A stretch of DNA of 60,137 bases from an uncultured Verrucomicrobia subdivision 3 bacterium (GCA_903833055.1 CAILDU010000048.1:1-60137), one strand, 5' to 3'; counted from the first letter of the stretch, positions 11,990-45,791 are shown. Notes: generated by a model not told the origin, from the sequence alone. Made by a program: numbers and translations.

Positions 11990-12100
11990 CGTTTAGTTTT
12001 GGGTGAAAACGTAATGGTGTAGCAGGTTATTCATCGCTGGCAACCTTGACAATTTAATACAGGTGTTAAGTTGTTCTATTGATTCCACGGCGGCGCAAAC

Positions 12101-12949: not shown

Positions 12950-12984
12950 CAAGCTCGGCGTATTCCACTAGAAATTTTCTTAAT

Positions 12985-26573: not shown

Positions 26574-27923
26574 TCACGGCGCGAGGCGATTCACGTTCAA
26601 CGGCAGTTCGCTGGCTTTCAATCTGGCTTCCACATCGCGGCGCTGCGCATCCAGCAAATCCAATTTTTTTATCGTGGCGCTGGCGCTGGCGGGACGATGA
26701 AAGAAACCTTTTTTCGGACCGCCGAGAAAATCAGTGAAGGCTTGATGGTAGCCAGCGGCAACCGGCGCGAGCGGCGGCGTGAGGCGAAGCTGGATGAGTT
26801 CCAAATCGCGCAGTTTGGTGCGAAAAATTTCCGCCTGCCGTTCCGCTGGAAAATTTTGCAGGGCGGACTGCAAAGAAATTTCCGCATACACCGGCAGCGA
26901 GTTGGAGGCGTAACGGACATCCACCGGCACGGCGAGCGCGGCGTCTAGTTTTTCGCGACTGACGACGGAGGTCCATTGCGGACCGGGCGCGCGCGCCGCA
27001 AACGCGACGACGCGGAGCGCCCACCATTTTTCCACATCGAGCGGACGTTGAAAATTTTCGCGGAACGCGGCGAAGAAAGCGGATTGCCAATTTTCATGCG
27101 ACGGCAATTGCGCGAGCATCGCGCGCACATTGGCTGCGCCGTTTTTCAGCGCGAGCAAATCGTGAACGAACAATTGCGCGCTGGCGAGATAGACGCCGTC
27201 GTCGTTGCCGTTTAGCTGCGCGTCGGTCGGCCAGCTCATTTGCTCGAAGGTGAGCGCGGGATAATTTTGCAGCGTGCGGCGCGCGGCGGCGAGTGAATCA
27301 AGTCCGCGCCGCTTTTCTTCGAGCCGCGTTTGAGCAAGGCCATCAATGGTTTTATTGGGCGCGGACAAAATGACTTTGGTTTCCGCCGCTTCCAAAATTT
27401 GCCGCGCCAGTCCGTCCGCAAGCCAGGCGGGAACGACCGAGGAACGGCCGCTGACCGGCGCGTTGCGATTGGCAAGTTCGAGCAACAGCACGGTGCTGAA
27501 CGCGCGCGCGCAACGGTTGCGCGGAATGAGGTCAGGCAATTCCACTCGGTAATTCCAAGTGCGAATAAACGGTTGTGCGGCGATGACTACGTCTTCGTCG
27601 GCCGTGCGTGCGGGATGCAGCGCGAGGAAAATTTTGCCATTCCACGGTGCGTTGGCAGCCATGCCGATTTGCGTCCACAGTGCGACCTTGAAGCGCTCGG
27701 CGGAAACGGCGAGCAACGATGGTTCGAGCCGGAGCAAATCAGTGTTCGTGCCCGCTTCGGCGCGGCGGAAATAGGGATTGATGGGCGACGTGACAGAAAC
27801 AATGAACTGGCCGGAAACGCTGCTGGTGGCGGCGGGCGGGGAAAATGAAGTTTGTCCGCGGGCGGCGGCGAGGAACGTCAGTAGGCCGACCACCAGCGCA
27901 CGGAGTGTGCGCGAACGGTTCAT
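26574..27923 (-). CDS. hypothetical secreted protein
   Basis: 449-aa ORF with signal peptide (LRALVVGLLTFLAAARGQ). Its start overlaps the upstream zinc-ribbon gene stop (ATGA at 27920-27923). No family recognised. Confidence 0.7.
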   Translation of the reverse strand: MNRSRTLRALVVGLLTFLAAARGQTSFSPPAATSSVSGQFIVSVTSPINPYFRRAEAGTNTDLLRLEPSLLAVSAERFKVALWTQIGMAANAPWNGKIFLALHPARTADEDVVIAAQPFIRTWNYRVELPDLIPRNRCARAFSTVLLLELANRNAPVSGRSSVVPAWLADGLARQILEAAETKVILSAPNKTIDGLAQTRLEEKRRGLDSLAAARRTLQNYPALTFEQMSWPTDAQLNGNDDGVYLASAQLFVHDLLALKNGAANVRAMLAQLPSHENWQSAFFAAFRENFQRPLDVEKWWALRVVAFAARAPGPQWTSVVSREKLDAALAVPVDVRYASNSLPVYAEISLQSALQNFPAERQAEIFRTKLRDLELIQLRLTPPLAPVAAGYHQAFTDFLGGPKKGFFHRPASASATIKKLDLLDAQRRDVEARLKASELPLNVNRLAP

Positions 27924-28219
27924 TTTTTTTCCGGTTTGGCGGCGGGCTTGGACTCGGTTTTCGTTTCGACCTTCGTGGGTGCGTAATCTTTTTTCGCCGA
28001 CGATTTATAGCCTTCGCTGCGATAGTCGGTGATGTAGAAACCGTCGCCTTTGAACAGCAGTCCCGCGCCCGCGCCGATTTGTTTAGCGACTTTGCCGCGA
28101 CCCCATTTTTTTTGCGCGCAAAGTTCTTTGGGGCAAATTGTCAGCGTGGGCGCGGACATGGACTGGCGCGTCTCAAATTCGTGTCCGCACTTTTTGCAGA
28201 CGTATTCGTAGGTGGGCAT
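27920..28219 (-). CDS. FmdB-family zinc-ribbon protein
   Basis: MPTYEYVCKKCGHEFE...ICPKELC, which is the CxxC...CxxxxC zinc-ribbon signature, and a Lys-rich tail. Confidence 0.85.
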   Translation of the reverse strand: MPTYEYVCKKCGHEFETRQSMSAPTLTICPKELCAQKKWGRGKVAKQIGAGAGLLFKGDGFYITDYRSEGYKSSAKKDYAPTKVETKTESKPAAKPEKK

Positions 28220-28225
28220 GGCGGC

Positions 28226-28990
28226 TCAATGCGCGGGGGCATTGGTGGACGCGCCGAGCGGCGGAATGACTTTTACCGAGCCGTCGGAACCGACCTCGAC
28301 ATTCAGACCATAATTCGCCGGGGCGGGCGCATTCGTCACCGGCGCAGAACGCTGGATGAGCAATTGCGCGCCTTTTTTCGAGCCGTTGTCATTTTTCATG
28401 AGCTGCAACCGGCGCGCGACAAACAAATCATCTTTAATTTTTTTAACCTGCGTGCGAAGTTCGTTCAGGTCATTGAATTTGTGTTCGACCTCGGCCTTTT
28501 GCGCCATCTGTTTTTCCAATGCCTGTTGGAGGAAAATGCTGTTCGTCTCGGAGGCGTTGAGTTTGCTGCGCGTGTCGTCAATGAGACTGTTCAACTGCGC
28601 GATGGTGTTGGTCAGTTCGTTGGCGCGCTGGTCGAGCACTTTGTTCTGCGTTTCCAAATCGCCGATGCGCGAATTGAGCGTGACGATTTGATCCTGCGCG
28701 CTGACGATAGCGATTTTGCTGTCGTTAATCGTCTTGGCGGCGGCGTTGAGGCTGTTGGAAAGCTGCTCGGCCTGCGTCTGACTCAACACGAGATCGTTGG
28801 AGTAAGTGATGTTGACCTGATTGAGATCATTGATTTTCAAATCGGCGTTCATTACCTGATTGGAAAAATCCATGATGGAACTCATGTCGGCAACGTGCTG
28901 TTCCTCGCCGGATTTTTTTACGGCGAACAGCGCAATGGCCAGAGCGACGCAGGCAACCGCCAAAATAACGATGACAATTTTCATCTTCAT
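28226..28990 (-). CDS. membrane-anchored coiled-coil protein
   Basis: The likely start is MKMKIVIVILAVACVALAIALFA at 28990. A long Gln/Asn/Leu-rich heptad region follows. No family recognised. Confidence 0.65.
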   Translation of the reverse strand: MKMKIVIVILAVACVALAIALFAVKKSGEEQHVADMSSIMDFSNQVMNADLKINDLNQVNITYSNDLVLSQTQAEQLSNSLNAAAKTINDSKIAIVSAQDQIVTLNSRIGDLETQNKVLDQRANELTNTIAQLNSLIDDTRSKLNASETNSIFLQQALEKQMAQKAEVEHKFNDLNELRTQVKKIKDDLFVARRLQLMKNDNGSKKGAQLLIQRSAPVTNAPAPANYGLNVEVGSDGSVKVIPPLGASTNAPAH

Positions 28991-29031
28991 AAGGTTAATT
29001 TGTCGGCCAACGCCTTTTATTGTCAAGCTGC

Positions 29032-30162
29032 TTACTTCAACGGCTGATCCACGGCCGCAGCGGCATTCGGACCGGCGGCGTCAGCTTGAGCGCGGACGCT
29101 GGCGTCCAAAGCCTTGAGCGCGGGGTCGGTGATTTCCACCGACTGGTCGGCGCGCAATTTTTTAACGTAGTCCGGCGCGAGCGCTTTGATCTGTTCCGAT
29201 TCCACTTCGTTTTTGCAGATGTCAGCTACGGTCTTGTTGATTTGCGGCAACGTATCGGTGTAGGCAAATTTCTTGGCCGGCGTCAGGTCAATCATTTTGA
29301 GAATGTGATAACCGAATTGCGTGGTGACAACGTCGCTGACCTGATTGTTCGTCATGGAGAATGCGGTCGCTTCAAATTCGGGAACCATCTGGCCGCGCGA
29401 AAATTCCGGCAGTTCGCCGCCTTTTTCCTTCGAGCCGGGATCTTCGGAATACTGGCTGGCGAGCGTAGCGAAATCCGCGCCGCCGCGAATCTGTTTCAGC
29501 AGCGCGTCAATCTGTTTGCGCTTGGCGGCAACGGCGTTCGTCGGCAACGGCGTCCGCGTCGCCGGATCAATCGTCATCAGCAAAATGTGGCGGACGTGCG
29601 CCATTTCCGGCTGTTCAAAATCCGCCGCGTGTTTGTCGTAAAACGCCTTTGCCTGCGCGTCCGTGACGTTGATGTTCAATTCACGTTTGAGCGTGGCTTT
29701 GGCCGTCGCTTCCTGCGCGGCTTTGGCGCGCAAATCATCCGCCGTCATGCCGACCGCCTTGAGCTGGCGATCGAACGCCTCGACGGAACCGAAGCGTTTG
29801 ACGAGATTCGTGTATTGCAAGTTCGCCTCCGCCGCACCCACCGCGCGGTCAGCTGGCGTCGCCAATTGCAACAGCGATTGGATGGTGACCAACTGATTCA
29901 AAATCGCGATGGCAAATTCCGGAGGCAACTGCTGACCTTGCGCGGCGGCATTCGCCTTCGCACCCGTCAAAACTTGATCCAATTCGCTCTGCTTGATGTC
30001 AAAACCCTTCGCCTTGACGATGACCGGGTCGCCGAATAGCGCTTTCATCGTCGCTTCGGGACTGGCGTTGGTGCTGGCGGAAGCCGCCGCCGGAGCGGTG
30101 ACAGCGTTGGCGGAAATCACACCGGCCATCAGCGCGGCGGAAAGGAATAATTTCGTTTTCAT
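29032..30162 (-). CDS. periplasmic parvulin-type peptidyl-prolyl isomerase (SurA/PrsA-like)
   Basis: Signal peptide and the rotamase block HVRHILL...FATLASQYSEDPGSKEKGGELPEFSRGQMVPEFE...FGYHILKM. Confidence 0.85.
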   Translation of the reverse strand: MKTKLFLSAALMAGVISANAVTAPAAASASTNASPEATMKALFGDPVIVKAKGFDIKQSELDQVLTGAKANAAAQGQQLPPEFAIAILNQLVTIQSLLQLATPADRAVGAAEANLQYTNLVKRFGSVEAFDRQLKAVGMTADDLRAKAAQEATAKATLKRELNINVTDAQAKAFYDKHAADFEQPEMAHVRHILLMTIDPATRTPLPTNAVAAKRKQIDALLKQIRGGADFATLASQYSEDPGSKEKGGELPEFSRGQMVPEFEATAFSMTNNQVSDVVTTQFGYHILKMIDLTPAKKFAYTDTLPQINKTVADICKNEVESEQIKALAPDYVKKLRADQSVEITDPALKALDASVRAQADAAGPNAAAAVDQPLK

Positions 30163-31914: not shown

Positions 31915-33378
31915 TTACAAGGCCGGATTGCGCGGGAATTTGGCATACGGCAAACGCGTGCCACGATATTCCATTTGGTCGGCGCGAATTGAAATGGGCG
32001 CGGGAAACAACGCCGCGCCGCTGGCGGAAATCAAATCGTCCTGATCCACGCCGTCGCCGCTCACGCCAATCGCGCCGATCAAAACGCCGTTGCGATAGAG
32101 CGGAAAGCCGCCGGGGAAAATCGTGATGCCGTTCGGCACGGCAGCATTCACGTTGGTCATCGTAGAAAAAACCGCGCCATTCAAGGGGTTTGTGAAAACA
32201 AGCGAGCTGGCGGTGACGCTGGAATTGGTTTCCTGCGCGCCGAGCAGCGGGCCGGGCAACGTGCCGTTGATGCCGGGCGGATAAAAACTTTGCGCGAGAA
32301 AACCGACGGTGCGCGTGGAGCAGGCGGTGTTCGATGCTGAATACAGCAGGGCTGTGCGCGCCTTCTGCACACAGACATCCCAACTGAACCGCGTCGTGTT
32401 GGGCGACGTGCAAAATGTGCCGAGCACGATGGGCGTCGCGTCGTCCACGCCGGGATTATTGACGACGGTGATAAACACTTCCGCCGGTTGGCCGGGCGGC
32501 AAACGGATGCCGGCGCGCGTGGTGCGACAACGGTTCGCGGCGGCGGTGATGATATCGAGAACCTCAGTGTCCGTCAGTCGCGCGGCGCCGAGCGGCACGA
32601 ATGACGGATCGTTAATAATGGGTTGGCGCACCTCGCCGGTTTCGCCGCCGATGGTCGCCACGGGATACGCAAATGGCGCGGGCGAATTGGTGAGCGTGAA
32701 CGGTGAAATTTCCATTCCCGGCAAACTGGCGAAAGAAATTACGTTTGTCAGTTTGGTTTTAGTTTCGATGTATTCCAGCCGGATGCCCGCCGCCAAAACT
32801 TTCGAGCCAAGAATTTTATTGGGCGGCGCAAAACCGATTTGTCCCGCGAGCGCGACATCTTCATCGCTGTCCGGTTTGGTGATACGGGCGGGCGTGATGT
32901 TTGTCGGCGCGACGAGTGTGAGGCCGGGCGAACTGCCATAAGTAATGACGCTGCCGGGCGCTTTGAATTTATTGATGTCGGAAAAGCTGAGTTGCGAAAA
33001 ATTCACGCCGACGAGTGGACCGGGCGGCTTGTTGCGGATGCCAATGGGAAAATGTTGCTGCACGATGTCGCCTGCGGTGCGCGACGAAAAAGCATTGTTA
33101 TCACTGCTCAAAAACGCAGCCGTGCCGGCTTTGGCGATGGCTTCGGCAACGAGATTATCATCGCCGAGCAAATTTGTGTTCAGCGACCAGACGCCGAGCA
33201 CCCAGCCTTCGCGGTCGGTGACAGCGACGACGGCGTTCGTGTTGAGCATCGGCAGCACGGTCGCGCGCGTGACCGCCTGCGCGATGACGGTCTGGACATC
33301 AGCGAGTGTAAGTTGAGCGGACGCCGTTCGCGCAACCAGCACGGCGAAAAGCAAAATTGGAAAAATCCGTTTCACCAC
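31915..33378 (-). CDS. secreted protein with GlcG/DUF336-like (haem-degrading-family) segments
   Basis: Signal peptide MVKRIFPILLFAVLVARTASA. N-terminal AVVAVTDREGWVLGVW and C-terminal GGFPLYRNGVLIGAIGVSGDGVDQDDLISASGA resemble the two halves of a GlcG domain, separated by about 300 aa. Confidence 0.55.
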   Translation of the reverse strand: MVKRIFPILLFAVLVARTASAQLTLADVQTVIAQAVTRATVLPMLNTNAVVAVTDREGWVLGVWSLNTNLLGDDNLVAEAIAKAGTAAFLSSDNNAFSSRTAGDIVQQHFPIGIRNKPPGPLVGVNFSQLSFSDINKFKAPGSVITYGSSPGLTLVAPTNITPARITKPDSDEDVALAGQIGFAPPNKILGSKVLAAGIRLEYIETKTKLTNVISFASLPGMEISPFTLTNSPAPFAYPVATIGGETGEVRQPIINDPSFVPLGAARLTDTEVLDIITAAANRCRTTRAGIRLPPGQPAEVFITVVNNPGVDDATPIVLGTFCTSPNTTRFSWDVCVQKARTALLYSASNTACSTRTVGFLAQSFYPPGINGTLPGPLLGAQETNSSVTASSLVFTNPLNGAVFSTMTNVNAAVPNGITIFPGGFPLYRNGVLIGAIGVSGDGVDQDDLISASGAALFPAPISIRADQMEYRGTRLPYAKFPRNPAL

Positions 33379-33431
33379 ACGGCGAGCATAAGCGCTTGCT
33401 TTCCGAAAATAAACAATTTCTCATTGGGCAA

Positions 33432-35630
33432 ATGCGGCGGCCTAAATCAGAGGCACAACAGAATTTTCTCCAGCGGCTTATTTTTGCCGGACTGGTGGCG
33501 GGCGCATCATCGTCTGGTTTTGCGGACGACGCGTTGAAACCGTATCAAGCCGTCAGCACAAATACGCCGCCCGCATCGCCGGAAATTTTCAATCCCGATC
33601 CAAATCCAGTTCAGTTGCCCGAACCGCCGCAGACGAATTTTCGCTGGGTGCGGCGCGTGACCGTCAGCACGAATTCCGAACCGCAACCGCAATTCAATCC
33701 CGATCCCGGCGCGAGCTTGAAAACAAAAACGGATTTGCCCGCGCCACTTTTTAACGAGCCGAGCGCACCGCCGGTTTTCACGCCGCCGGAAATTCCCGCC
33801 GACAAAACTTTGCCGCGCGCCGACGTTCGCCTCGGCGAAATTATGCCGTCGCCGACCGCGCCGCCAATGCCCCGTTACGGTTCCGAGCCGCTGACGAACG
33901 GACTCGCGTTGCCGCGCGCGGATGTGCGCCGCGAATTAAAAATTGATCAAGAATTTCGCGTGCCGAAATATTCGCTGCGAAAAATCGATTGTCCGACGAA
34001 CGCCGTGGCGGTTCCCGACCGCTGGCGCATCGGTTTCGTGCCGTGGAAACGCTACACGAGCGGCGTCATCGAGCAGCCTTACGAGACGCCGAACGCGTCG
34101 CTCTGGGCGCCTTACAAACAAAGCGTGCTCAAGGGCGACGTGCCGATCATCGGACAGGATATTTTTCTCGACCTCACGGCGTCGTCGGAGACGGTGACGG
34201 AAATTAAACGCGTGCCGACGCCCAGCGGTGTCAGCACGGCGAACGCCGGCGAAAATTCTTTTTACGGCACGGGCGAACAAATCAGCATCCAAAATAATCT
34301 GGCGCTCTCGATAAATTTATTTCAGGGCGAAACGGCTTTTCGTCCGGTGGATTGGGCGGTGAAAATCGAGCCGGTCTTCAATGTGAACTATCTCGACACG
34401 CAAGAAAATGGCGTCGTTTCGCCCAACGCCAAGCAGGGCACGGATCGCACAAAAACTTATCTCGCGTTGCAGCAGGCGTTCGTCGAAGTGCATCTCGCGG
34501 ACTTGTCGGACACTTACGATTTTTGCTCGGTGCGCGTCGGCAACCAGCCGTTCAACGCCGATTTTCGCGGCTTCATTTTCAACGACATTAATTCCGGTGC
34601 GCGCTTTTTTGGAAATTGGAACAACAATCTTTACCAATACAACGTCGCCGTTTTTGACATGCGCGAGAAGGACACGGACTCGGAACTAAATACTTTTAAC
34701 GACCGCGACCAAGTTGTTTCCATCGTCAATCTTTACAAGCAGGATTTCATCTGGCCGGGCTACACGGCGGAATGGAGTTTTCTTGCGAACAACGATTTTG
34801 GCGGCACGCATTACGACGGCAACGGCAATCTCGTGCGCCCCGAACCCATCGGCACGGTGCAGGCGCACGACGTGAATGCGTATTATCTCGGTTGGGGCGG
34901 CGACGGTCACATCGGACGCTTCAATGTGTCGCACCAATTTTATCAGGCGCTCGGCTACGACAGTTTTAACGACCTCGCCGGTCGCCCCGTAACCATCAAC
35001 GCGCAGATGGCTGCGCTCGAAGTTTCTTACGACCGCGACTGGGCGCGCTACAAAGCGTCGTTTTTTTACGCGAGTGGCGACGGCAATCCGACCGACGGCA
35101 AAGGCACGGGCTTCGACACGATTGTGGACAATCCGAATTTCACCGGCGGCCCATTTAGTTTTTGGAATCGGCAGGGCTTAAATCTCGGCGGCACGATGGT
35201 AAACTTAAAAAATTCCAGCAGCCTCGTGCCGGATATGCGGACGAGCAAAACTGAAGGTCAGGCGAACTTCGTAAATCCCGGCGTTTATATTTTTGGTCTC
35301 GGCGCGGAATTTGATGTGACGCCGAAACTGCGTTCGTTTCTGAATGCGAATTATATTTTGCTCGCACAAACCGAGCCGGTTCAAACCGCGCTGCTCACCT
35401 CAAAAATCAGCAATGAAATCGGCGAAGACTTGAGCCTCGGTTTTCAGTATCGCCCGTTGCTAACGGACAACATTATTTTTTCCGCCGGCTTTGGCGTGCT
35501 GATTCCTGGCAGCGGCTACCGCGACATTTACGGCAACAGCGGCGCGAATGTGCCGGGCTTCAATAATAATAGCGGGAACGCGACGGCCTTTCCTTATAGC
35601 GGATTGATTGCGATCACGTTCACTTACTAA
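33432..35630 (+). CDS. large outer-membrane beta-barrel protein (alginate-export-like?)
   Basis: The likely start is MRRPKSEAQQNFLQRLIFAGLVAGASSSGFA at 33432. A Pro-rich linker with internal duplications (FNPDP, LPRADVR) precedes a long beta-strand region ending ITFTY. Confidence 0.7.
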   Translation: MRRPKSEAQQNFLQRLIFAGLVAGASSSGFADDALKPYQAVSTNTPPASPEIFNPDPNPVQLPEPPQTNFRWVRRVTVSTNSEPQPQFNPDPGASLKTKTDLPAPLFNEPSAPPVFTPPEIPADKTLPRADVRLGEIMPSPTAPPMPRYGSEPLTNGLALPRADVRRELKIDQEFRVPKYSLRKIDCPTNAVAVPDRWRIGFVPWKRYTSGVIEQPYETPNASLWAPYKQSVLKGDVPIIGQDIFLDLTASSETVTEIKRVPTPSGVSTANAGENSFYGTGEQISIQNNLALSINLFQGETAFRPVDWAVKIEPVFNVNYLDTQENGVVSPNAKQGTDRTKTYLALQQAFVEVHLADLSDTYDFCSVRVGNQPFNADFRGFIFNDINSGARFFGNWNNNLYQYNVAVFDMREKDTDSELNTFNDRDQVVSIVNLYKQDFIWPGYTAEWSFLANNDFGGTHYDGNGNLVRPEPIGTVQAHDVNAYYLGWGGDGHIGRFNVSHQFYQALGYDSFNDLAGRPVTINAQMAALEVSYDRDWARYKASFFYASGDGNPTDGKGTGFDTIVDNPNFTGGPFSFWNRQGLNLGGTMVNLKNSSSLVPDMRTSKTEGQANFVNPGVYIFGLGAEFDVTPKLRSFLNANYILLAQTEPVQTALLTSKISNEIGEDLSLGFQYRPLLTDNIIFSAGFGVLIPGSGYRDIYGNSGANVPGFNNNSGNATAFPYSGLIAITFTY

Positions 35631-35677
35631 AATTTGCGTAATGAAATTAAATCGGACAAACTCACGGTAAATGCCGG

Positions 35678-38600
35678 ATGAAAAATAAAGGAACAATCCA
35701 GCGCGGCGCGCGTTTGAAATTTCTGCATTCTGCATTGTTCATTCTGCCTTTGCTCGCCGCGTTGTCGCTGTTGGCGCAAGAAAATCCGTCCGGCTCCGGC
35801 CCGGAAATTTCGGTTCCAAAAAATATTCCCGCCGACGCGACGCACGCGTTGCCAAAACCAAACTGGATTGACCAATCACAAGCCGACGCGGACAAAAAAT
35901 CTCGCGGTTGTCTCGAATGCCACGTCGGCAGCGAGTCCATGCACGCGTCAAAAAATGTCGTGCTGGGCTGCACGGATTGCCATGGCGGCAATGCGACGCC
36001 GGGCTTGAAACAAACGCAGGCGCACGTCGCGCCGCGTAATCCGGTTTTCTGGCAAAGCTCGGCGAACCCGAACGACTCGACGATTTTGCTCAATCACGAA
36101 TCCGCCGAGTTCATCAAATTTGTAAATCCCGGCGATTTGCGCGTCGTGGAGGAAACCTGCGCGCCGTGCCACGCGGATATCGTCCACAACGTCAGCCACA
36201 GCATGATGCGCCATGGGGCGATGCTCTGGGGCGCGGCGCTCTACAACAACGGCGCATATCCGGCAAAAAATTATCGCTTCGGCCAAGCCTACGGTTTGGA
36301 CGGCTCGCCGCTGCGATTGGAAAGTCCGGTTCCCGTCACGCAGGCAATGACCGACCGCTGGGGAATTTTGCCGTTCATTGATCCGCTGCCGCGCTTTGAA
36401 ATTTCGCAACCGGGCAATTTGCTCCGCATCTTCGAGCGCGGCGGCGAAGAGCAATCGCAGCTCGGCAATCCGAATCCGTTTGAAGAACCCGGCAAGCCCG
36501 CGCGCCGTTTGAGCGAGCGCGGACTCGGCACGTTGAACCGGATTGATCCCGTATTTTTGAATTTGCAGAAGACGCGCTTGAACGATCCGCTGCTGGATTT
36601 CATGGGCTCAAACAATCATCCGGGCGATTATCGCAGCAGCGGCTGCACGGCGTGTCACGTTGTTTATGCGAACGACCGTTCGCCCACGGATTCCGGCTGG
36701 TATGCGAAATACGGCAATCAAGGCTTGAGTTTTTCCGCCGACAAAGCGATTCGCAAAGACGAGCGCGGACATCCTATCACGCACCAATTCACGCGCGCGA
36801 TTCCGACGAGTCAGTGCATGAACTGCCATATGCATCAGGGAAATTTGTTCGTGAATCCATTTCTTGGTTTCACTTGGTGGGATCAGGAAACCGACGGCGA
36901 ATTCATGTATCCGGCCAAGCAAAAAAATCCGACGCCGGAAGAATTGACGCGCGCCATTCGTGATAATCCCGAGGCCGCCGCCGCGCGCGGTTTGTGGGGC
37001 GATTTGGATTTTCTCGAAAAAGTTTCCGAGTTGAATCCGAAATTGAAAGATACGCAGTTCGCCGATTACCACGGTCACGGCTGGATTTTCCGCGCGGTGT
37101 TCAAGCACGATCGCGAAGGCAATTTACGCGACCGCGATGAAAATATTATTACGGCAGACGACCCGCAGAAATTTGCGAAGGCCGTTCACTTGAAGGACGA
37201 ACATCTCGCGCACGGAATGCAATGCGCCGACTGTCACTTCGACGTGGACGTTCACGGCAACGGCCTACTTTACGGCGAGCCGCGCGCGGCGACGACCATC
37301 GAGTGCATTGATTGTCACGGCACAATTCAAAAACGCCCGTCGCTCGTGACGAGTGGCAACGGCGGTATTTGGACCGGCACAAACATCGCCAATGTGGATT
37401 TGCGCGCGAATAATACCGCGTTTGGCCCGCGCTTTTTCTGGCAGGGAAATAAATTGTTCCAGCGTTCTTCGATGGCGCCGGACTTGATTTGGGAAGTGCC
37501 GCAAACCATTGATACTATTGATCCGAATTCGTCGCACTATAACGCAAAGTCGGCTTACGCAAAAACTTTGGGACGCGACGGAAAAACTTGGGGCGCAGTG
37601 CCGGAGCCAAAAAATTGCACGCGCGATTTGGCGCATGACAATTCAAATGTCGGTTGCCAAGTCTGCCATTCGTCGTGGGCAACTTCCTGTTTCGGCTGTC
37701 ATTTGCCGATGCGCGCGAACCAGCGCGTGCCGGCGAACAAATTTGAAGGCACGACCACGCGCAATTTTACGAGCTACAATCCGCAGGTCGTGCGCGATGA
37801 TGTTTTTCAGCTCGGCGTGGATGCGAGTTACAAGAGCAATCGCCTCGCCGTATTGCGCTCGTCGTCCGCCGTCATCGTGAGTTCGCAGAACGCAAATCGC
37901 GAATGGGTTTATTCGCAGCAGCAGACCATCAGCGCGGAGGGTTACAGCGGCGAGGCTTACAATCCGCACTTGCCGCATACAACGAGCGGCGTGGGCACGA
38001 CGAAAAATTGCGAAGACTGCCACGTTGCGAAAGCCAATGACAACAATGCTTGGCTCGCGTCGCTGCTCGGTTTCGGCACGGGCACGGTGAATTTCTTTGG
38101 CCGCTACGCCTATGTCGGCGAAGGCAAGGGCGGACTCGACGCAGTGATTTGGACGGAGCAAGACGAACCGCAGGCCGCGCTCGGCAGCCATCTGCATCGC
38201 CTCGCGTATCCCGACAATTACAAAAAATTCGTCGAAGAAGATCACAGCATTTTGCACGACGGCGAACGCAAGGAAGCAACCGAGATTCTCGATTTGATTC
38301 AGCGCGGCGAGTATCTTTACACCGCGAATGGCAAAGATGGCTTCGAGGTTTTTGATATTGCAAACATTGATCAAAAAGGCTTTTCCGAACGCATCAGCAC
38401 CGCGCCAGTTTCGCCGCTCGGCCAACGCACTTACGTCCGCACGAAATACGCCACGAGCGTCACGCTGCCGAGCACGCTTGGCGTGGATCCGCTGCGAACG
38501 CATTTGCCGGAAAATCAGGAGCAACCCGTCAGCCCGATTTACGCGTGGGTTTTTGTGACTGACCGCGAGGAAGGTTTGGTGATGGTCACGGTCGGCACAT

Positions 38601-39538
38601 TGCTCGACGGCAATCCTGACAATAATTATTTCGATAAGGAAAAAATTATCCGCTTCAATCCGGATGGAAAACTTTCCGGCGCGATGCACAGTTTCATGGC
38701 GGGAACGAATCTTTACGTCGTCGGCAAAAACGGATTGTTTGTGGTCGGTCTGCGTAATGACGCACTCGAAGCGCCAATGTTGGCGGGCGAATTGACCGAC
38801 GGTTTAAAAAATCCGCGCGCGGTCGGCGTGCAATTCCGTTATGCGTTTGTGACGGACGATGAAGGTTTCAAAGTCCTTGATGTCACCGAGCCGACGAAAC
38901 CGAAATTGATTCCCGGCGCCTTCGTGCCGCTCAAAAACGCGCAGCGGTTTTATCTCGCGCGCACTTACGCCTACGTTGCGGATGGTGCGGATGGATTGGC
39001 GTTCATTGACATTTCCAATCCGGAAAAACCGAAACTGGAACGGCTTTACAACGCCGATGGAAAATTGAACGACACGCGCGCGGTGCAAATCGGTTCGGTC
39101 AATGCGTCGGAATTTGCGTTCGTTGCGGATGGGAAAAATGGATTGCAAATCTTGCAGATGATTTCGCCGGAAAATGTTCCGGGCGCGATGGGTTTTAGTC
39201 CCGCGCCGAATCCAAAACTCATCTCAACATTCCCGACGCGCGAACCGGCGGTGGCGGTCGGTCGCGGGCTTGACCGCGACCGCGTGGTGGATGAAAGCGG
39301 AAATCAAACGGTCGTGTTCGGACGCAAGGGTTCACGTCCGTTTAATCTCGCCGAGATGAAAAAGTTTTACGAGCGCGATGGTGAACTTTACACGGTGGAA
39401 AATGTTTTTTCGCGCGATGGAAAACTGGTCACGCGCAGTGGCGATGAGTTGAAACCGACAGCGGAATTTCAATCCGAAACGCAGGAAGCCATTGCACCAC
39501 CGAGTAATAATGAGCGTTTGCTGCGGCGCGGCGAGTAA
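35678..39538 (+). CDS. decaheme c-type cytochrome fused to a C-terminal LVIVD-repeat (beta-propeller-like) region
   Basis: Signal peptide. Ten CxxCH motifs: CLECH, CTDCH, CAPCH, CTACH, CMNCH, CADCH, CIDCH, CQVCH, CFGCH, CEDCH. C-terminal repeats [58 protein letters not shown]. Confidence 0.88.
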
Positions 39539-39546
39539 AAATCTTT

Positions 39547-42288
39547 TCAGTGCGGCGATTCGGGGCGCTGAAAAATAATCGTGTCGGACGGATGATGGAC
39601 ATTGCCGCGCGGCATGATGAGCTTGGCGACGAGGCCGCTCCAGCCGGTCTGATGCGAAGCGCCCACGCCGCGTCCGCTGTCGCCGTGAAAATATTCGTGG
39701 AACAAAATGTGGTTCTTGAAATGCGGGTCGGTCGCGAGCTTCGGATGATATTTCAAAACGGGACGCTGGCCGTCCGCACCGGGCTGAAATAATTTTACGA
39801 GCCGGAGCGATAGTTCATCCGCGACTTCCTTGAGGGTCAGAAATTTTCCCGAACCGGTGGGGCATTCGATTTTGAAATCGTCGCCGTAGTAATGGTGAAA
39901 TTTCTGGAGCGATTCAATGAGGAGAAAATTCATCGGCAGCCAGATGGGGCCGCGCCAGTTGGAATTACCGCCGAAAAGTCCGGCTTCGGATTCCGCCGGC
40001 CAGTAACGGACTTCATGAATTTCGCCGCCGCAATCAAGTTGATACGGTTCGGTCTCGTGAATTTTTGACAGCGCGCGGATGCCGTGGTCGCTCAAAAATT
40101 CCGTCTCATCAAGCGCGCGACGCAGCAGACATTTCATGCGGTGACCGCGCAGCAGCGAGAGCAAATGGCGCTCGCCGACGCCGTGATCCTGCCAGCGCGA
40201 AACGAGATTCGCGAGGTCGGGACGATGCTTGAGAAACCATTCCATGCGCGCGGTGAAGGCGGGCAGACGTTTCAGCAAAGCGGGATCCAAAGTCTCAACG
40301 GCAAACAGCGGAACGAGGCCGACGAGCGAGCGGACTTTGAGCGGAATTTTTTTGCCGTCGGGCAGACAAAGTTCGTCGTAATAAAATTCATCCGTTTCGT
40401 CCCAGAGCGCCAGGCCGTCATCGGGCATGGCGTTGTCGCTGACGCCGTTGATGGCGGCGGCGATGCTCAAAAAATGCTCGAAAAATTTCGTGGCGATGTC
40501 CTCGTAAACTTTATTGTGCTGCGCGAGTTCGAGCGAAATCCGCAATAGATTCAGGCAATACATCGCCATCCAGCTTGTGCCGTCGGCTTGATTGATGAAG
40601 CCGCCGGTGGGCAATGCGGAGCTGCGATCGAACACGCCAATGTTGTCGAGACCGAGAAATCCGCCTTGAAAAATATTGCGGCCTTGCGCGTCTTTGCGAT
40701 TCACCCACCAGGTAAAATTCAAAAGTAATTTATGGAAGACGCGTTCCAAAAATTCCAAATCGCCTTTGTCGTGTTCGTCCGTTTCGCGGCGATGTTTGCG
40801 ATCCATTTGGAAGACACGCCACGTCGCCCACGCGTGCACGGGCGGATTCACGTCGCCGAACGCCCACTCGTAAGCGGGCAACTGGCCGTTCGGGTGCATG
40901 AACCATTCGCGCGTGAGCAGGTCGAGTTGACGCTTGGCGAACTCGGAATCAATGAGCGCAATCGGGATGCAATGAAACGCCAAATCCCACGCGGCGAACC
41001 ACGGGTATTCCCATTTGTCCGGCATCGAAATAATGTCGGCATTGTTCATGTGCGACCAATCGGCGTTGCGCGCGTGACGACGTTCCGGCGGCGGCGGCGG
41101 TTGCGTCGGATCGCCGTTGAGCCACGTCCGCACGTTGAAACGATAAAATTGTTTCGACCAGATCATGCCGGCGAAAGCCTGCCGCTGGATGGAACGCAAA
41201 TCGGCGTCGTGCAGACCGTCCTGCACTTCGGCGTAAAACTGATCGGCCTCGGTCAGCGCTTGTGAAAAAACCGCATCAAAATCTGTGAACGGTTTTGTGG
41301 CGGACTTGCGCGCGAGGCGCAATTGGATGGAGCGCGAGCCACTGGCGGGAATTTCCAATTCGTAATGCGCGCACATTTTTGTGCCGACGCGTTTGGGATT
41401 AACCGCGTCTTTATTGCCTGCAATGAGGTATTCGTGAAAGGCGTCTTTGAAAAATCCGGCAACTTTTTCTTCGCCGTAAATCCGCTCACGGTTCGTTTCG
41501 TTTTCGCAAAACAGCAAGTCGGGTAAAGTTTTTCCGTCGTCGGTCGCGCCGGGATGAAATTCAAAGGTGCCAAGTTCTTCGTGTTCGACGGCGACGGCCG
41601 AGCCGCCGCGCACGGCGCGTAAATTGGGTTTGTGCGCCTCTTTTTTCCACGACCATGAGTTGCGAAACATCAGGTGCGGCAGCAGATGAATCGTCGCCGC
41701 TTCGGGTCCGCGATTGTGAACGGTGACGCGCATCAAAATGTCGTCGGGCGCGGCCTTGGCGTATTCTACGAAGATGTCGAAGTAACGGTCGTCGTCAAAA
41801 ACGCCGGTGTCGAGCAGTTCAAATTCGCCGTCCGTTTTTCCGCGCTTCGCATTTTCCGCGACGAGCTGATCGTAGGGAAAAGCGCGTTGCGGATACTTAT
41901 AAAGCATCTTCAGGTAGGAATGCGTCGGCGTCGCGTCGAGGTAATAATACAGTTCCTTCACGTCCTCGCCGTGATTGCCCTCAGCGTTGGTGAGGCCGAA
42001 AAGACGCTCCTTCAAAATTGGATCTTTGCCGTTCCACACCGCGAGCGAGAGACAGAGACGTTGTAAACCGTCGCTGAAACCGGCGATGCCGTCTTCACCC
42101 CAGCGATAGGCGCGGCTGCGCGCGTGGTCGTGCGGAAAATATTCCCACGCCGTGCCGCCGGGCGAATAATCTTCGCGCACAGTTCCCCACTGACGTTCGG
42201 AAAGATAGGGTCCAAAAAATTTCCACGGCTGCGCGCCTTTTTTTTCTTTGGCGAGCCGGACTTTTTCAGCAATGACAGCAGCACACAT
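39547..42288 (-). CDS. GH63-like glucosidase (MGH1-like glycoside hydrolase)
   Basis: N-terminal [44 protein letters not shown] and the (alpha/alpha)6-type C-terminal half, both typical of the ~900-aa bacterial GH63-like family (recollection). Confidence 0.8.
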
Positions 42289-42365: not shown

Positions 42366-45300
42366 TCAACGAGCGACCGGCTGTTTCTGCCGCCAGTCGC
42401 GCAAATGAACTAAAGCTTTTTCCGCCTGCGCGTCGAGGCTGGCGAGCGTTTCGCCCGCGCTGTTCGCATCGCTCACCTCGGCGGCGTCTTCGACCGTTTG
42501 GAGCATTTCCGAGAGCGGGCGGAAACCGAACAGCGCAAGTAATCCTTTCAGCGAGTGCGCGGCGCGTTTGAGATCGGGCCAGTGGGCGGCGGCGTGCAGC
42601 CGATGGATTTCCTTCAAGCGATCCGGTAGCTCATTTACGAAATCCGCCGCCATGTCGCAAACGGCGGCGCGGCCGAGGTCGTTGCACAGTTGTTCAATCT
42701 GGCCGTCATCAAAAATTTTGTCGCTGGCGGAACGCGCGGGAACGGCGGCGAGCAGCGATTGATAAAGTTGCTGCGAGGTGAACGGCTTGGGCAAATAGTC
42801 GTCCATGCCAGCGGCGAGGCAGCGTTCGCGTTCGCCGACGAGCGCGTTGGCGGTGATGGCAATGATGCGGACGCGCGGTGAAATATTTTTTTCAGTTTCG
42901 ATTTTACGAATCTCGGCGGTGGCTTCGTGGCCATCGAGTTCCGGCATATTGCAGTCCATTAAAATGGCGTCGTAAGTGCCGGAAGAAAATTTATTTACGG
43001 CTTCGCGACCGTTTTCCGTCCAGTCGGCCTTGACGCCAAAACCATCGAGCATGAGCTGCCAGAGCTTGCGATTAAAGGGATGATCCTCGGCGGCGAGAAT
43101 GCGGAGATTGGAAATGGGCGTGGTCTTGACGACGGTTTCGCGCGCAATAATTTCCGTGTCGCCGGGCAGCCGGACGGGCCGCAACGCTTCCGGTTTTTTG
43201 CCGGCGACCACGTTCACCAGCGCGTCAAACAAAGATTGTTCGCGGGCGGGTTTGAGCAACACGTTGGCGAACTGTGCCAAATCATTTTGTTCATCGCCCA
43301 ACGTCGCCGTGGGGCCGGCGAGCAAGATACATTGGACGCGGCCACGTTGTTCCATGAGCAACGTGCGCAGCGCAGCGCCGCCGAGTTCGAGCATTTCATC
43401 GTCACACAAAACAACGGGCAGAATTGTCGAGCGGATATCGTGCCGGAGCGTGCGCAATAATTCCGTGGCCGTCGCGACCTCGGAACAATCCACGCCCCAG
43501 CCGCGCAAACGTTCCGCCAGCGATTCGCGCAGACTGGCATTGGGCGCGGCGATAAGCACACGTTCGAAAACGAGACCGGGAAAACTGCGCTCGATGGCGG
43601 ATTGCGGCGGCACGGCGAAGGGCAATTCAAACCAAAAAGTTGAGCCGGTTCCCACCGCGCTGTGAACGCCGATGCGGCCGCCCATGAGTTCAATAATTTT
43701 CCGCGAGATGGCGAGGCCGAGACCGGTGCCGCCGAATTTGCGGGACGACGACGTGTCCGCCTGCATGAACGGCTGAAATAATTTATGGGTCTGTTCCGGC
43801 GTGAGGCCGATGCCTGTATCGGTAATTTCAAAACGGAGTTTGATCCGGCCTTGCGCGTGTGTGATTGGCTGGACGCGGATGATGACTTCGCCGCGCTCGG
43901 TAAATTTGACGCCGTTGCCGACGAGGTTGAGCAGCACCTGCCGGAGGCGGACGGGATCGCCAATCAACCGGTGCGGCACGTTGCGGCGGACGATGGCGGC
44001 GAGGTGAATTTTCTTTTCCGGTTCGCGCGTGGAAGCGTTTTCGAGCACGCCATCCACGATGTCGCGCAGGGAAAAATTTTCCTGCGCGATGTTCATTTTA
44101 CCCGCTTCAATCTTGGAGAAATCGAGCACGTCGTTGATGACGTGGAGCAGCGCGTTGGCGCTCGCGGCGGCGGCGGCGGCGAATTCTTTTTGGCGCGGGT
44201 CGAGGCGCGTCTGCGAAAGTAATTCAATCATGCCGAGAATGCCGCTTAACGGCGTGCGAATCTCGTGGCTCATGTTCGCGAGAAATTCGCTCTTGGCAGC
44301 GTTGGCGCGGTTGGCTTGCGCGGCGGCGGCGTTGGCCTCCTTCGCGGCAATCTGAAACTGGAGATTGGTTTTTTCCAGTGCGGCTTTGGCTTCCTGCACC
44401 GCGAGTTCGGCTTGCTTGCGGGACGTGATGTTCTGAATGACGGCCTGATATTCGAAATGTTTTCCGCTGTCATGGGTGAACCGGCGAATGTTGCATTGCT
44501 GCCATTCCACATGGCCGGCGGCGGCGACGGCGCGACGGTCAAACGAGCAGACCGGACGGTCGGCGGGCAGCGCGGCCAGATTGTCCCGCAACGTTTTCGT
44601 TTCGGCGATGGTGAGCAATTGGAAAAAATCCGAGCCGAGCAGTTGCGCTTCCGTCTGGCCGTGAAACTCACAGAAGGCTTGATTTACAAAGGTGATTTCG
44701 CCATCGGGCAGAAAGCGGCAGATTAAATCTGACTGGTCAGCGACGACGGTGCGCAGCCGTTTTTCATTTTCCGCGAGATTGATTTCTGCGCGTTGCCGTT
44801 CGGTGGCGATGGCCGCCAACAACAAATTGACTAATGCCGTCACGCAAATGTAAACGCCGAACAACCGCAGTCCGCCTAAATCGTCGTCGGTCAAAAATGG
44901 GCCGCGGCCATGCAGGAAAAAATAGACGACCATGCTTGCCGCCATCATCGTGCCCGCAACCGCACCGCGCGGGCCGAATCGGAATCCGCCCCACAACAAA
45001 AACGGCACGGGCAGATAGACGAGCGGATAATTGTGGATGCCATAAACGAACCAGGTGTTGAAGGCGACGAGCGTGCTGGCAATCAAACCGGCGGCGCAAA
45101 CGAAAGCCTCCGCGCCTTTCCGGAAATTCCAGTGCCACAGCGAACGGCTCGTCCACACGATAAAAAATGGCGGCAACACCAGCACGGCGAGCGCATTCGG
45201 AACCCACCACGCCAGCATATTGGGCAGCAGTGCGTCCCACGAAATTCGGTTTTCGCACGCCAGTCCGGCGGCGTTGAGCGCGGCGTTGAGTGCGGCGCCG

Positions 45301-45560
45301 AAACCGCAGACGACCAAGAGATAGCTCGCCACGTCGCGCACTCGTTCCTGCGCGTTTTCAAATTTAAAAAGCCATTTCAACAACGCCGCCGAGCCGAGCG
45401 CGATGAGCGTATTGCCGACGGCGGTGATGACCATGAACCAGCCAAACGGCACGCCGCCAAAAAATAAAAATAGGAACGCGCCGAGCGTGATAGCGAGCCA
45501 GTAGCGATAACCCAAAATAAAAACCACCGCCAACGCCAGCCCCGCCAGCGGCCAGAACAA
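42366..45560 (-). CDS. MASE1-PAS hybrid sensor histidine kinase with receiver(s) and an HPt domain; the 5' end is possibly frameshifted
   Basis: A multi-TM MASE1-like N-terminus, PAS, HisKA (SEFLANMSHEIRTPL), HATPase, a receiver (ILAAEDHPFNRK...ILMDCNMPELDG) and HPt (AAHSLKGLLALFG). The called start is TTG. An upstream ORF (to 45682) looks like the missing N-terminus in another frame. Confidence 0.9.
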   Translation of the reverse strand: MFWPLAGLALAVVFILGYRYWLAITLGAFLFLFFGGVPFGWFMVITAVGNTLIALGSAALLKWLFKFENAQERVRDVASYLLVVCGFGAALNAALNAAGLACENRISWDALLPNMLAWWVPNALAVLVLPPFFIVWTSRSLWHWNFRKGAEAFVCAAGLIASTLVAFNTWFVYGIHNYPLVYLPVPFLLWGGFRFGPRGAVAGTMMAASMVVYFFLHGRGPFLTDDDLGGLRLFGVYICVTALVNLLLAAIATERQRAEINLAENEKRLRTVVADQSDLICRFLPDGEITFVNQAFCEFHGQTEAQLLGSDFFQLLTIAETKTLRDNLAALPADRPVCSFDRRAVAAAGHVEWQQCNIRRFTHDSGKHFEYQAVIQNITSRKQAELAVQEAKAALEKTNLQFQIAAKEANAAAAQANRANAAKSEFLANMSHEIRTPLSGILGMIELLSQTRLDPRQKEFAAAAAASANALLHVINDVLDFSKIEAGKMNIAQENFSLRDIVDGVLENASTREPEKKIHLAAIVRRNVPHRLIGDPVRLRQVLLNLVGNGVKFTERGEVIIRVQPITHAQGRIKLRFEITDTGIGLTPEQTHKLFQPFMQADTSSSRKFGGTGLGLAISRKIIELMGGRIGVHSAVGTGSTFWFELPFAVPPQSAIERSFPGLVFERVLIAAPNASLRESLAERLRGWGVDCSEVATATELLRTLRHDIRSTILPVVLCDDEMLELGGAALRTLLMEQRGRVQCILLAGPTATLGDEQNDLAQFANVLLKPAREQSLFDALVNVVAGKKPEALRPVRLPGDTEIIARETVVKTTPISNLRILAAEDHPFNRKLWQLMLDGFGVKADWTENGREAVNKFSSGTYDAILMDCNMPELDGHEATAEIRKIETEKNISPRVRIIAITANALVGERERCLAAGMDDYLPKPFTSQQLYQSLLAAVPARSASDKIFDDGQIEQLCNDLGRAAVCDMAADFVNELPDRLKEIHRLHAAAHWPDLKRAAHSLKGLLALFGFRPLSEMLQTVEDAAEVSDANSAGETLASLDAQAEKALVHLRDWRQKQPVAR

Positions 45561-45791
45561 AGTGACTTGCCCGAAGAGCAGTAATATGATTTTTTGAAGA
45601 GCAGTCCGCCCAGAAAATAAACCACCAGCAGCGCCGTCGAACGCAACAGCGCCGGCAAGACTGGTTGTGGTGTATCACTCACGCCGGTTTCCTTTTAACG
45701 AAAAATTGCAGTCAAGGCCAGCAATATGCAAGCGGCCTTCCAAAAATTAACCGCTGACCGGCGGGCGAATTTCGTTTATGCTCCGCGCACG

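Follow-up and report, generated by a model that had tools for sequence, protein, structure and literature searches.

We describe a predicted envelope redox module encoded between positions 31915 and 39538 of a 60,137-nucleotide (nt) stretch of DNA from an uncultured Verrucomicrobia subdivision 3 bacterium (GCA_903833055.1, CAILDU010000048.1:1-60137; the whole stretch is referred to below as the window). In this module, a gene for an outer-membrane (OM) β-barrel of 732 amino acids (aa) directly precedes a gene for a secreted protein of 1286 aa that joins ten c-type heme motifs to a β-propeller (the decaheme-propeller cytochrome), and a divergently transcribed gene encodes a secreted HbpS/GlcG-like protein of 487 aa. 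Barrel and cytochrome occur as a pair in five phyla, frequently close to genes whose products share their domain composition with the inner components of the ptdABCDEFG cluster. With moderate confidence, we read the three genes as the outer-envelope end of a Ptd-like electron-transfer chain that would cross the cell envelope, running outward from NAD(P)H under the control of a cyclic nucleoside monophosphate (cNMP), with the barrel acting as a substrate channel and not as a sheath for the cytochrome. The system is uncharacterised and is related to Ptd-like and porin-cytochrome systems.

Barrel and cytochrome genes form a conserved pair

The three genes and the domains of the cytochrome are laid out as follows:

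31915-33378, minus strand: secreted tandem HbpS/GlcG-like protein, 487 aa, from the open reading frame (ORF) call; probable accessory partner of the module
33357-35630, plus strand: barrel ORF; gene calls on public contigs start at the ATG at 33432, which gives 33432-35630 and 732 aa
33432-35630, plus strand: OM β-barrel, 732 aa, with a signal peptide, a Pro-rich N-terminal extension of ~190 aa and an AlgE-like barrel of ~540 aa with probably ~18 strands
35678-39538, plus strand: decaheme-propeller cytochrome, secreted, 1286 aa; proposed terminal redox protein of the system
35780-38104, plus strand: heme domain of the cytochrome, residues ~35-809, with ten hemes in ~775 residues, about one per 78 residues
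38105-39313, plus strand: LVIVD β-propeller of the cytochrome, 7- or 8-bladed, residues ~810-1212 (Pfam LVIVD; AlphaFold2, AF2), followed by a conserved tail motif

A preliminary description of this DNA had listed the three genes, with 47 nt separating the barrel from the cytochrome, ten CxxCH motifs in the latter together with about six repeats of the LVIVD type, and a divergent HbpS/GlcG-like gene; ORF calls, motif counts and Pfam searches returned all of these. Reading of the sequences showed a Sec-type signal peptide at the start of all three proteins and a lipobox Cys in none of the three N-termini. A promoter and terminator scan of 31.5-40 kb gave results no better than those for shuffled sequence.

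To follow the module across genomes, the best 80 of at least 568 tblastn-confirmed matching stretches (one genome per species) were taken as the locus set. Pairing with the barrel was counted in the 67 loci in which 2.5 kb or more of DNA lay upstream, and other neighbours were counted within 7 kb in the 42 fully flanked loci. These 80 loci are spread over Verrucomicrobiota (all major orders), Acidobacteriota, Planctomycetota, Myxococcota and Fervidibacter, and in all of them the cytochrome is at least 49% identical to the window protein over ~1200 residues. The cytochrome family is large, as 8000 of 8000 scored database candidates were significant.

The barrel gene was found directly upstream of the cytochrome gene, on the same strand, in 64 of the 67 informative loci. 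One clear exception is locus L040 (6812-10897) in a Chthoniobacteraceae metagenome-assembled genome, which encodes a full-length cytochrome orthologue with 7 kb of upstream DNA and has no barrel, HbpS-like or Ptd-like gene nearby. Pairwise identities of the cytochromes and of the barrels are correlated with r = 0.92 (59 loci), and the pair is co-inherited rather than adjacent by chance. An unconserved pair, or a standard export channel occurring without cytochrome partners, had been named beforehand as grounds for abandoning the idea; with pairing in 64/67 loci over five phyla, neither refutes it. The conserved neighbours of the pair are cytochromes, Fe-S proteins and HbpS-like proteins, and clustering of the ORFs in the 80 loci revealed no alginate or other exopolysaccharide genes among them.

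Directly downstream of the cytochrome gene, 14 loci (L002, L005, L061 and 11 others) encode a secreted NHL-repeat β-propeller protein of ~426 aa. This gene is absent from the window, where a gene for a GH63/MGH1-like glycoside hydrolase of 913 aa (39547-42288, minus strand) stands in its place; apparent matches to the NHL protein inside the window were off-frame within the cytochrome gene and were rejected. A GH63/MGH1-like gene also lies near the module in L005 (74% identity) and L053 (51%). On the European Nucleotide Archive contig L081 (6870-9610), which encodes an identical cytochrome, the gene is called as two, of 232 and 671 aa, and this split points to a frameshift or an assembly error.

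The pair is linked to Ptd-like genes

The ptdABCDEFG cluster of marine Alphaproteobacteria, Gammaproteobacteria, Nitrospirales and Planctomycetes encodes a putative porin-cytochrome complex, the function of which is completely unknown according to its authors (Elbon et al., bioRxiv 10.1101/2023.11.21.568154). Its products are a pentaheme protein with a β-sandwich (PtdA), a porin (PtdB), an FAD/NAD(P) oxidoreductase (PtdC), a tetraheme protein (PtdD), a cNMP-binding protein that carries two 4Fe-4S clusters (PtdE), a ferric-reductase-like membrane protein (PtdF) and a decaheme protein (PtdG) (bioRxiv 10.1101/2023.11.21.568154). Counterparts of PtdC to PtdG, as judged from domain composition, are encoded in the window at 14.9-21.5 kb, and a cyclase gene lies at 9902-11989:

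14918-16504, minus strand: PtdG-like anchored decaheme protein whose cytoplasmic N-terminus is rich in Cys, with one transmembrane helix and ten CxxCH motifs; near the pair in 23/80 loci
16501-17319, minus strand: PtdF-like membrane protein, 272 aa, with two H-x13-H motifs in transmembrane helices; 21/80 loci
17313-19037, minus strand: PtdE-like cytoplasmic protein with cNMP_binding (three stretches) and a Fer4 (4Fe-4S) dicluster domain (Pfam); 21/80 loci
19056-20363, minus strand: PtdC-like FNR-type flavoprotein with FAD_binding_6, NAD_binding_1 and Fer2 (2Fe-2S) (Pfam); start codon uncertain
20354-21535, plus strand: PtdD-like periplasmic tetraheme protein of the c554 type (Pfam Cytochrome_C554) with three CxxCH and one CX4CH motif; 25/80 loci; start codon uncertain
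9902-11989, minus strand: adenylate/guanylate cyclase with a CHASE2 sensor, 695 aa (Pfam); tentative member of the system

The PtdF-like protein is probably a di-heme-b, ferric-reductase-like electron carrier. It matches DUF4405 with E 0.01, and an acidobacterial orthologue matches Ferric_reduct with E 0.0017, all below the Pfam cut-offs. Its start was placed at M147 (position 17319) of a 418-codon ORF (16501-17757, minus strand). The full ORF, with an apparent overlap of 340 nt, was rejected: its first 146 codons, rich in Arg, shadow the end of the cNMP-Fe-S gene out of frame, and the tblastn similarity in this part reflects conservation of the other frame. With the corrected start, the PtdF-like gene overlaps both of its neighbours by a few bases, and such overlaps among the minus-strand genes at 17313-19037, 16501-17319 and 14918-16504 suggest translational coupling.

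The preliminary description had regarded the three genes as a second multiheme locus, independent of the one at 15-21 kb. This independence was not borne out. In the 80 loci, ORF clustering revealed an anchored multiheme protein, a small membrane protein, a cNMP-binding Fe-S protein, a c554-like protein and a NuoF-like protein as recurrent neighbours of the pair, and these are homologous to the window genes at 14.9-21.5 kb. In 29 of the 42 fully flanked loci the pair has at least one Ptd-like gene no more than 7 kb away, and in 24 it has two or more. In the Opitutae loci L009 and L010, the genes for the cNMP-Fe-S protein, the membrane protein, the decaheme protein, the barrel and the cytochrome follow each other in this order on a single strand, and the acidobacterial locus L050 has eight such genes in one uninterrupted row. 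Acidobacteriota have, in place of the FNR-like protein, a NuoE/F-like flavin mononucleotide module together with a NuoG-like N-terminus on the cNMP protein. Because this position is filled by two unrelated modules that oxidise NAD(P)H, we take NAD(P)H as the likely cytoplasmic partner. The best explanation for this linkage is that the three genes and those at 15-21 kb belong to one larger system. The porin-cytochrome conduit idea of the preliminary description is supported in part: the barrel-cytochrome system is real and conserved, and an envelope electron-transfer role is reasonable because the module is linked to a chain leading out of the cytoplasm into the periplasm.

The nucleotide that the PtdE-like protein would sense may come from the CHASE2 cyclase. 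Its gene is followed by two genes for FecR-domain proteins (9902-13863 for the whole group).

A proposed route for electrons

In the route that we propose, the FNR-like flavoprotein would take electrons from cytoplasmic NAD(P)H and pass them to the 4Fe-4S protein with cNMP-binding domains, which is the likely gate and may be controlled by the CHASE2 cyclase. The PtdF-like protein, with its two H-x13-H heme-b sites, would then move the electrons across the inner membrane. This arrangement of flavoprotein and di-heme-b protein, here split over separate polypeptides, resembles NOX, FRE and MsrQ systems, which export electrons. On the outer side of the inner membrane, the anchored decaheme protein would receive the electrons, probably aided by the tetraheme c554-like protein as a shuttle, and the decaheme-propeller cytochrome would be the terminal acceptor protein of the chain.

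This cytochrome is probably periplasmic, and both it and the tandem HbpS-like protein would be docked to the AlgE-like barrel from the periplasmic side. We place it there because an 18-strand barrel is unlikely to sheath the heme domain and because a lipid anchor is lacking. Its most likely role would be that of an outer-sphere reductant for a diffusible acceptor that passes through the barrel, with Fe(III) or Mn chelates, groups of the quinone or humic type, or a small oxyanion as candidates. Outer-sphere reduction of metal chelates and quinones is favoured because all hemes are potentially six-coordinate. The barrel would then be a channel for the substrate and not a cytochrome sheath. Of this scheme, the genes present, their domains, their conservation and their linkage are observed, whereas the direction of flow, the docking, the location of the cytochrome and the acceptor are inferred.

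The decaheme-propeller cytochrome as a proposed reductant or specific enzyme

The cytochrome carries exactly ten CxxCH motifs, at residues 78, 98, 161, 323, 380, 516, 543, 660, 671 and 778, and a motif scan detected no CxxCK and no CX3-4CH. All ten motifs are kept in 72 cytochrome sequences from five phyla, the alignment of which has a mean identity of 58% and a further 261 positions conserved to at least 97%. Among the near-invariant residues are 11 additional His (89, 116, 365, 369, 386, 467, 504, 509, 526, 653 and 767) and two Met (177 and 514), which should be enough for six-coordination of all ten hemes. Heme density in the heme domain is low, and long conserved segments are free of hemes.

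The C-terminal part matches Pfam LVIVD (PF08309) with 61.8 bits against a cut-off of 20.2, and six LVIVD-type units can be read between residues ~878 and 1168. An AF2 model built on 78 sequences from two phyla shows the C-terminal ~400 residues as a confident propeller (predicted local distance difference test, pLDDT, ~85-93), and Foldseek searches with the model returned generic propellers only (cd1 NirS, BtuG, YncE, BamB and AztD). No His or Cys is near-invariant in the propeller of the 72 sequences, where the residues kept to this degree are acidic, amide, Arg and Tyr. A tail motif past the propeller (residues ~1196-1222, window 39260-39340) is near-invariant across the five phyla and may be an interaction peptide.

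Searches for named relatives were carried out at the level of sequences, profiles and families. Against PDB sequences, phmmer found no match to the cytochrome, and a PDB profile search gave a sole match, to octaheme nitrite reductase, which is weak (E 0.017) and collinear over two di-heme segments. We treat this match as a lead and not as evidence of membership. In the comparison with NrfA and octaheme nitrite reductases, CxxCK is missing, the similarity is not significant and only generic di-heme motifs are shared. Pfam and NCBIfam searches left the MtrA family unmatched and gave only generic c7/c3 matches below threshold. The NCBIfam family ExtM, a cytochrome of selenite/tellurite operons, was matched below threshold (48 bits against a cut-off of 800) in the same di-heme segment. 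A search of the whole library of representatives with the heme domain gave 2709 matches, the best 150 of which belong to the same family or are fragments of it, with no bridge to a named family.

These properties bear on whether the cytochrome is instead a specific periplasmic enzyme that reduces or detoxifies a small molecule (nitrite, hydroxylamine, NO, sulfite, selenite or peroxide), with the barrel as its uptake channel and NAD(P)H as its electron source. We consider this unlikely, though it is the alternative that survives best. It is kept alive because conservation is unusually high, with a mean identity of 58% and 261 positions at 97% or more across phyla. The low heme density and the long conserved heme-free segments point the same way, as do the nitrite reductase match, which runs collinearly over hemes 1-2 and an NrfA-type 'G-x-x-C-x-D-C-H' di-heme segment, and the sub-threshold ExtM match. 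In addition, AlgE-type barrels conduct anionic substrates. A role in the nitrogen cycle has also been raised by the authors of the ptd cluster (bioRxiv 10.1101/2023.11.21.568154). Several features argue the other way: CxxCK and other unusual heme motifs are missing, the conserved His and Met suffice to give ten hemes six ligands each, the propeller lacks conserved metal-binding His or Cys, and the resemblance to nitrite reductase is confined to generic di-heme motifs and is not significant. On balance we prefer the outward chain in which the cytochrome would act as an outer-sphere reductant.

The barrel as a proposed channel or conduit

No sequence match to the barrel was found in Pfam or NCBIfam (at E up to 10), or among PDB sequences with phmmer and profile searches. 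The AF2 model, built on a 33-sequence alignment, shows 18 long antiparallel strands between residues 280 and 731, a count that is provisional at a pLDDT of 44; from this model, use was made solely of the secondary structure and of the kind of Foldseek matches. Foldseek against the PDB returned OM barrels exclusively, with AlgE at the top (E ~1e-10) and poor TM-scores (0.26-0.41). The best matches are the 18-strand AlgE and porins of 16-18 strands. Moreover, the C-terminal OM signal x-hydrophobic-x-F/Y is present in 19 of 19 barrel orthologues. From the strands, the Foldseek matches and the C-terminal signal, which are indirect evidence, we conclude that the 732-aa protein is an AlgE-like OM barrel, in agreement with the barrel of about 730 aa predicted at the outset. 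It has probably 18 strands and, as modelled, is probably too narrow to sheath the cytochrome as MtrB does. The Alginate_exp family (PF13372) is matched below threshold in 3 of the 19 orthologues (at best 23.8 bits against a cut-off of 25.2, E 2.3e-5) and is not matched by the window barrel itself.

The Pro-rich first ~190 residues are specific to Verrucomicrobiota, and conservation of the barrel starts near residue 190. An N-terminal CarboxypepD_reg domain is found in 8 of the 19 orthologues, and the acidobacterial barrels carry it. Such N-terminal extensions are periplasmic in TonB-dependent receptors. By analogy, the domain on the acidobacterial barrels would fit binding of a partner at the periplasmic side, and we count it in favour of the docked arrangement. 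One of the barrel stretches most conserved across phyla is a loop of ~70 residues, 548-617 (GDGN...GFDTIVDNPNFTGGPFSFW...SKTEGQANFVNPG). It is unstructured in the AF2 model and could be a pore constriction or a docking site for the cytochrome.

The divergent 487-aa protein matches Pfam HbpS-like (PF03928) with 59 bits against a cut-off of 25. The preliminary assignment to the GlcG/DUF336-like family thus stands. The 'split' segments seen at first are instead a tandem duplication of the HbpS/GlcG domain, as BLASTP aligned the two halves with E 5e-9. Its PDB sequence matches are PduO-C, EfgA and GlcG-type proteins (E 6e-5 to 6e-4). A gene for an HbpS-like protein lies within 7 kb of the cytochrome gene in 29 of the 42 fully flanked loci, mostly divergent and upstream of the barrel gene, as in the window, and its product is probably an accessory partner of the module.

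A classical conduit of the MtrAB/Pcc type would have part of the cytochrome inserted through the barrel and would deliver electrons directly to insoluble extracellular acceptors. The conserved adjacency of barrel and decaheme genes is what such a conduit would predict, and the pair is linked to further periplasmic and membrane multiheme proteins. The NHL-repeat propeller protein encoded downstream in 14 loci recalls the cytochrome and NHL clusters of Desulfovibrio ferrophilus, and extracellular electron transfer has been proposed by the authors of related clusters. The dimensions, however, do not fit. MtrB has 26 strands, and MtrA packs ten hemes into ~330 residues; here an AlgE-like barrel of ~18 strands adjoins a protein with ten hemes in ~775 residues. 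The locus encodes no extracellular partner of the MtrC kind, a lipoprotein signal is lacking, and most carriers belong to lineages of aerobic heterotrophs. In line with the first impression that neither protein resembles the Mtr families, Pfam and NCBIfam gave no match to MtrB/PioB or MtrA, and the size and heme spacing of the cytochrome differ from theirs. We therefore regard such a conduit as improbable: what remains of the conduit idea is the role in envelope electron transfer, and MtrAB-style threading through an ~18-strand AlgE-like barrel by a heme-sparse, very highly conserved and anchorless cytochrome of 1286 aa, unlike MtrA or OmaB, is not supported.

Direction of flow and points against the outward route

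The chain could in principle run inward, with the module oxidising an external donor such as Fe(II), Mn(II) or reduced humics, inside the barrel or next to it, by a Cyc2-like logic and feeding the cytoplasm. Cyc2 combines a small barrel with a cytochrome at its mouth, an arrangement similar to that proposed here, and multiheme chains are reversible in principle. The ptd cluster is moreover present in nitrite oxidisers, which need reverse electron flow (bioRxiv 10.1101/2023.11.21.568154). The cytoplasmic end argues against this direction, as an FNR-like or NuoEF-like module joined to a ferric-reductase-like di-heme-b protein is the architecture that exports electrons in NOX, FRE and MsrQ. Reduction of NAD(P)+ by Fe(II) or humics would also be uphill, and the clusters contain no energy-coupling subunit. 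We judge inward flow to be slightly less probable still than a conduit of the MtrAB/Pcc type.

That the barrel is an ordinary export channel for polysaccharides or solutes, next to the cytochrome without meaning, is close to refuted and very improbable: AlgE as the best structural match and the GH63-like glycosidase gene downstream are in its favour, and they are set against adjacency in 64/67 loci over five phyla, the co-variation of r = 0.92 and a conserved neighbourhood free of alginate and exopolysaccharide genes.

Several observations nevertheless weigh against the outward, cNMP-gated chain from NAD(P)H. The heme domain was left unfolded by AF2, which modelled it without hemes, and heme ligation is predicted from sequence. 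The barrel model has the low pLDDT given above, so that its lumen size is as provisional as its strand count. Between phyla, the 1200 residues are 49-58% identical, a degree of conservation to be expected sooner of an enzyme for a particular small substrate than of a promiscuous reductase at the surface. Every database name in the family is 'hypothetical protein'. The window genes are likened to the Ptd proteins by domain composition only. In the window itself, 12 kb of housekeeping genes lie between the two gene sets, and 13 of the 42 fully flanked loci have no Ptd-like gene within 7 kb. Linkage of the CHASE2 cyclase is weak, with homologues beside the module in 7 of the 42 (for example in L005, L050, L060 and L061).

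Significance and other genes in the window

Acidobacteriota and Verrucomicrobiota are among the most abundant bacteria of soil and freshwater, and little is known of their envelope redox biology. The module described here is widespread in them and beyond (at least 568 tblastn-confirmed matches in species-representative genomes), with ~50% identity between phyla, and is annotated only as 'hypothetical protein'. Its tie to a chain that would be fed by NAD(P)H and gated by a cNMP turns orphan multiheme genes into one testable system of eight to nine genes, which would have an input, a membrane step and an exit at the OM. If the acceptor is Fe(III), Mn or humic matter, the system could be a means by which 'aerobic' heterotrophs of soils and peat export electrons; if the cytochrome is a specific enzyme, it would represent a new family of terminal oxidoreductases.

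It is possible, and we put this forward tentatively, that the genes specify an unrecognised and very widespread redox machine of soil and freshwater. In such a machine, a cNMP-gated NAD(P)H chain would bypass the quinone pool and end in a new terminal decaheme-propeller enzyme, which would act at an AlgE-like OM channel along with a cofactor protein of the tandem HbpS-like kind. The reaction might be a controlled reduction of ferric iron or humics, the production of superoxide outside the cell, or turnover of unrecognised N or S species. To our knowledge, none of these three activities is currently assigned to any gene of Acidobacteriota or Verrucomicrobiota.

Elsewhere in the window, a hybrid histidine kinase with MASE1 and PAS domains, a receiver and an Hpt domain (1064 aa, minus strand) is encoded beside a divergent sigma-54-dependent response regulator of 502 aa (42366-47234 for both genes), and other loci showed no link between this pair and the cytochrome module. 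Three sizeable ORFs had no Pfam match: 5493-8909 (minus strand, 1138 aa), with no Pfam family at E up to 0.001, and 26574-27923 (minus strand, 449 aa) and 27845-29047 (plus strand, 400 aa), with none at E up to 10.

Comparison with known systems

The closest structural match to the barrel is AlgE, whose 18 strands equal the provisional count for the window barrel, and orthologues of the window barrel fall just below the Alginate_exp (PF13372) threshold. The window barrel differs in having no Pfam match, an extra conserved N-terminal segment and the conserved loop of ~70 residues at 548-617, and it is paired with a cytochrome where no alginate operon is present.

MtrCAB, PioAB and the Geobacter Pcc systems (OmaB-OmbB-OmcB) share with the module an OM barrel gene that adjoins a decaheme gene, and further periplasmic and membrane multiheme proteins that feed in. 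Their barrels have 20-26 strands, whereas the one described here is AlgE-like with ~18. The cytochrome here is four times larger, fused to a propeller and sparse in hemes, in contrast to ~30 residues per heme in the Mtr type, and no surface lipoprotein cytochrome accompanies it. The electron source would be NAD(P)H, by way of a flavoprotein and then a di-heme-b protein, whereas in those systems they come from the quinol pool through CymA, ImcH or CbcL. No sequence homology to them was detectable with Pfam or NCBIfam.

'Novel porin-MHC' (multiheme cytochrome) clusters have been reported in freshwater Verrucomicrobia; their porins have 20 or more transmembrane segments, and eight heme sites are conserved in their cytochromes (He et al. 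2017, PMC5615132). Compared by description only, these clusters resemble the module in phylum, in the shared genera Opitutus and Ca. Udaeobacter (L010 and L023) and in a porin gene that adjoins a gene for a periplasmic multiheme protein; they differ in that no propeller or HbpS-like partner is mentioned (PMC5615132). In Desulfovibrio ferrophilus, the clusters DFE_0448-0451 and DFE_0461-0465 likewise associate multiheme proteins with β-propellers of the NHL-repeat type, as do the 14 loci with NHL proteins here, but there the propeller stands as a protein of its own, and a barrel partner has not been reported. In the library of papers searched, none links LVIVD repeats to multiheme cytochromes in the present sense.

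The inner part of the proposed chain follows the logic of NOX/FRE and MsrPQ, in which electrons pass from NAD(P)H through a flavin and a two-heme-b membrane protein to an acceptor on the outer side, and the H-x13-H pairs of the PtdF-like protein fit this scheme. Here, in contrast, the components are separate polypeptides, a putatively cNMP-gated Fe-S protein is interposed, and more than 24 c-type hemes and an OM barrel lie downstream.

The nearest system as a whole is that of the ptd cluster. Its five inner components, PtdC to PtdG, have the same domain composition as the products of the window genes at 15-21 kb, with PtdF as a probable match, and in both systems these accompany a porin and a terminal multiheme protein with a β-rich C-terminal domain. 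They differ in the terminal protein, which is a pentaheme protein with a β-sandwich in PtdA and a 1286-aa decaheme protein with an LVIVD propeller here; in the tandem HbpS-like protein, which is added here; in the carriers, which here are Verrucomicrobiota and Acidobacteriota of soil and freshwater and not marine taxa; and in the layout, as the cluster in the window is split into two loci 12 kb apart. Where the ptd cluster has PtdA and PtdB, the system described here would have the barrel-cytochrome pair, with another terminal protein and with an HbpS-like partner besides. This would extend the ptd cluster beyond marine taxa and make its terminal module an exchangeable part.

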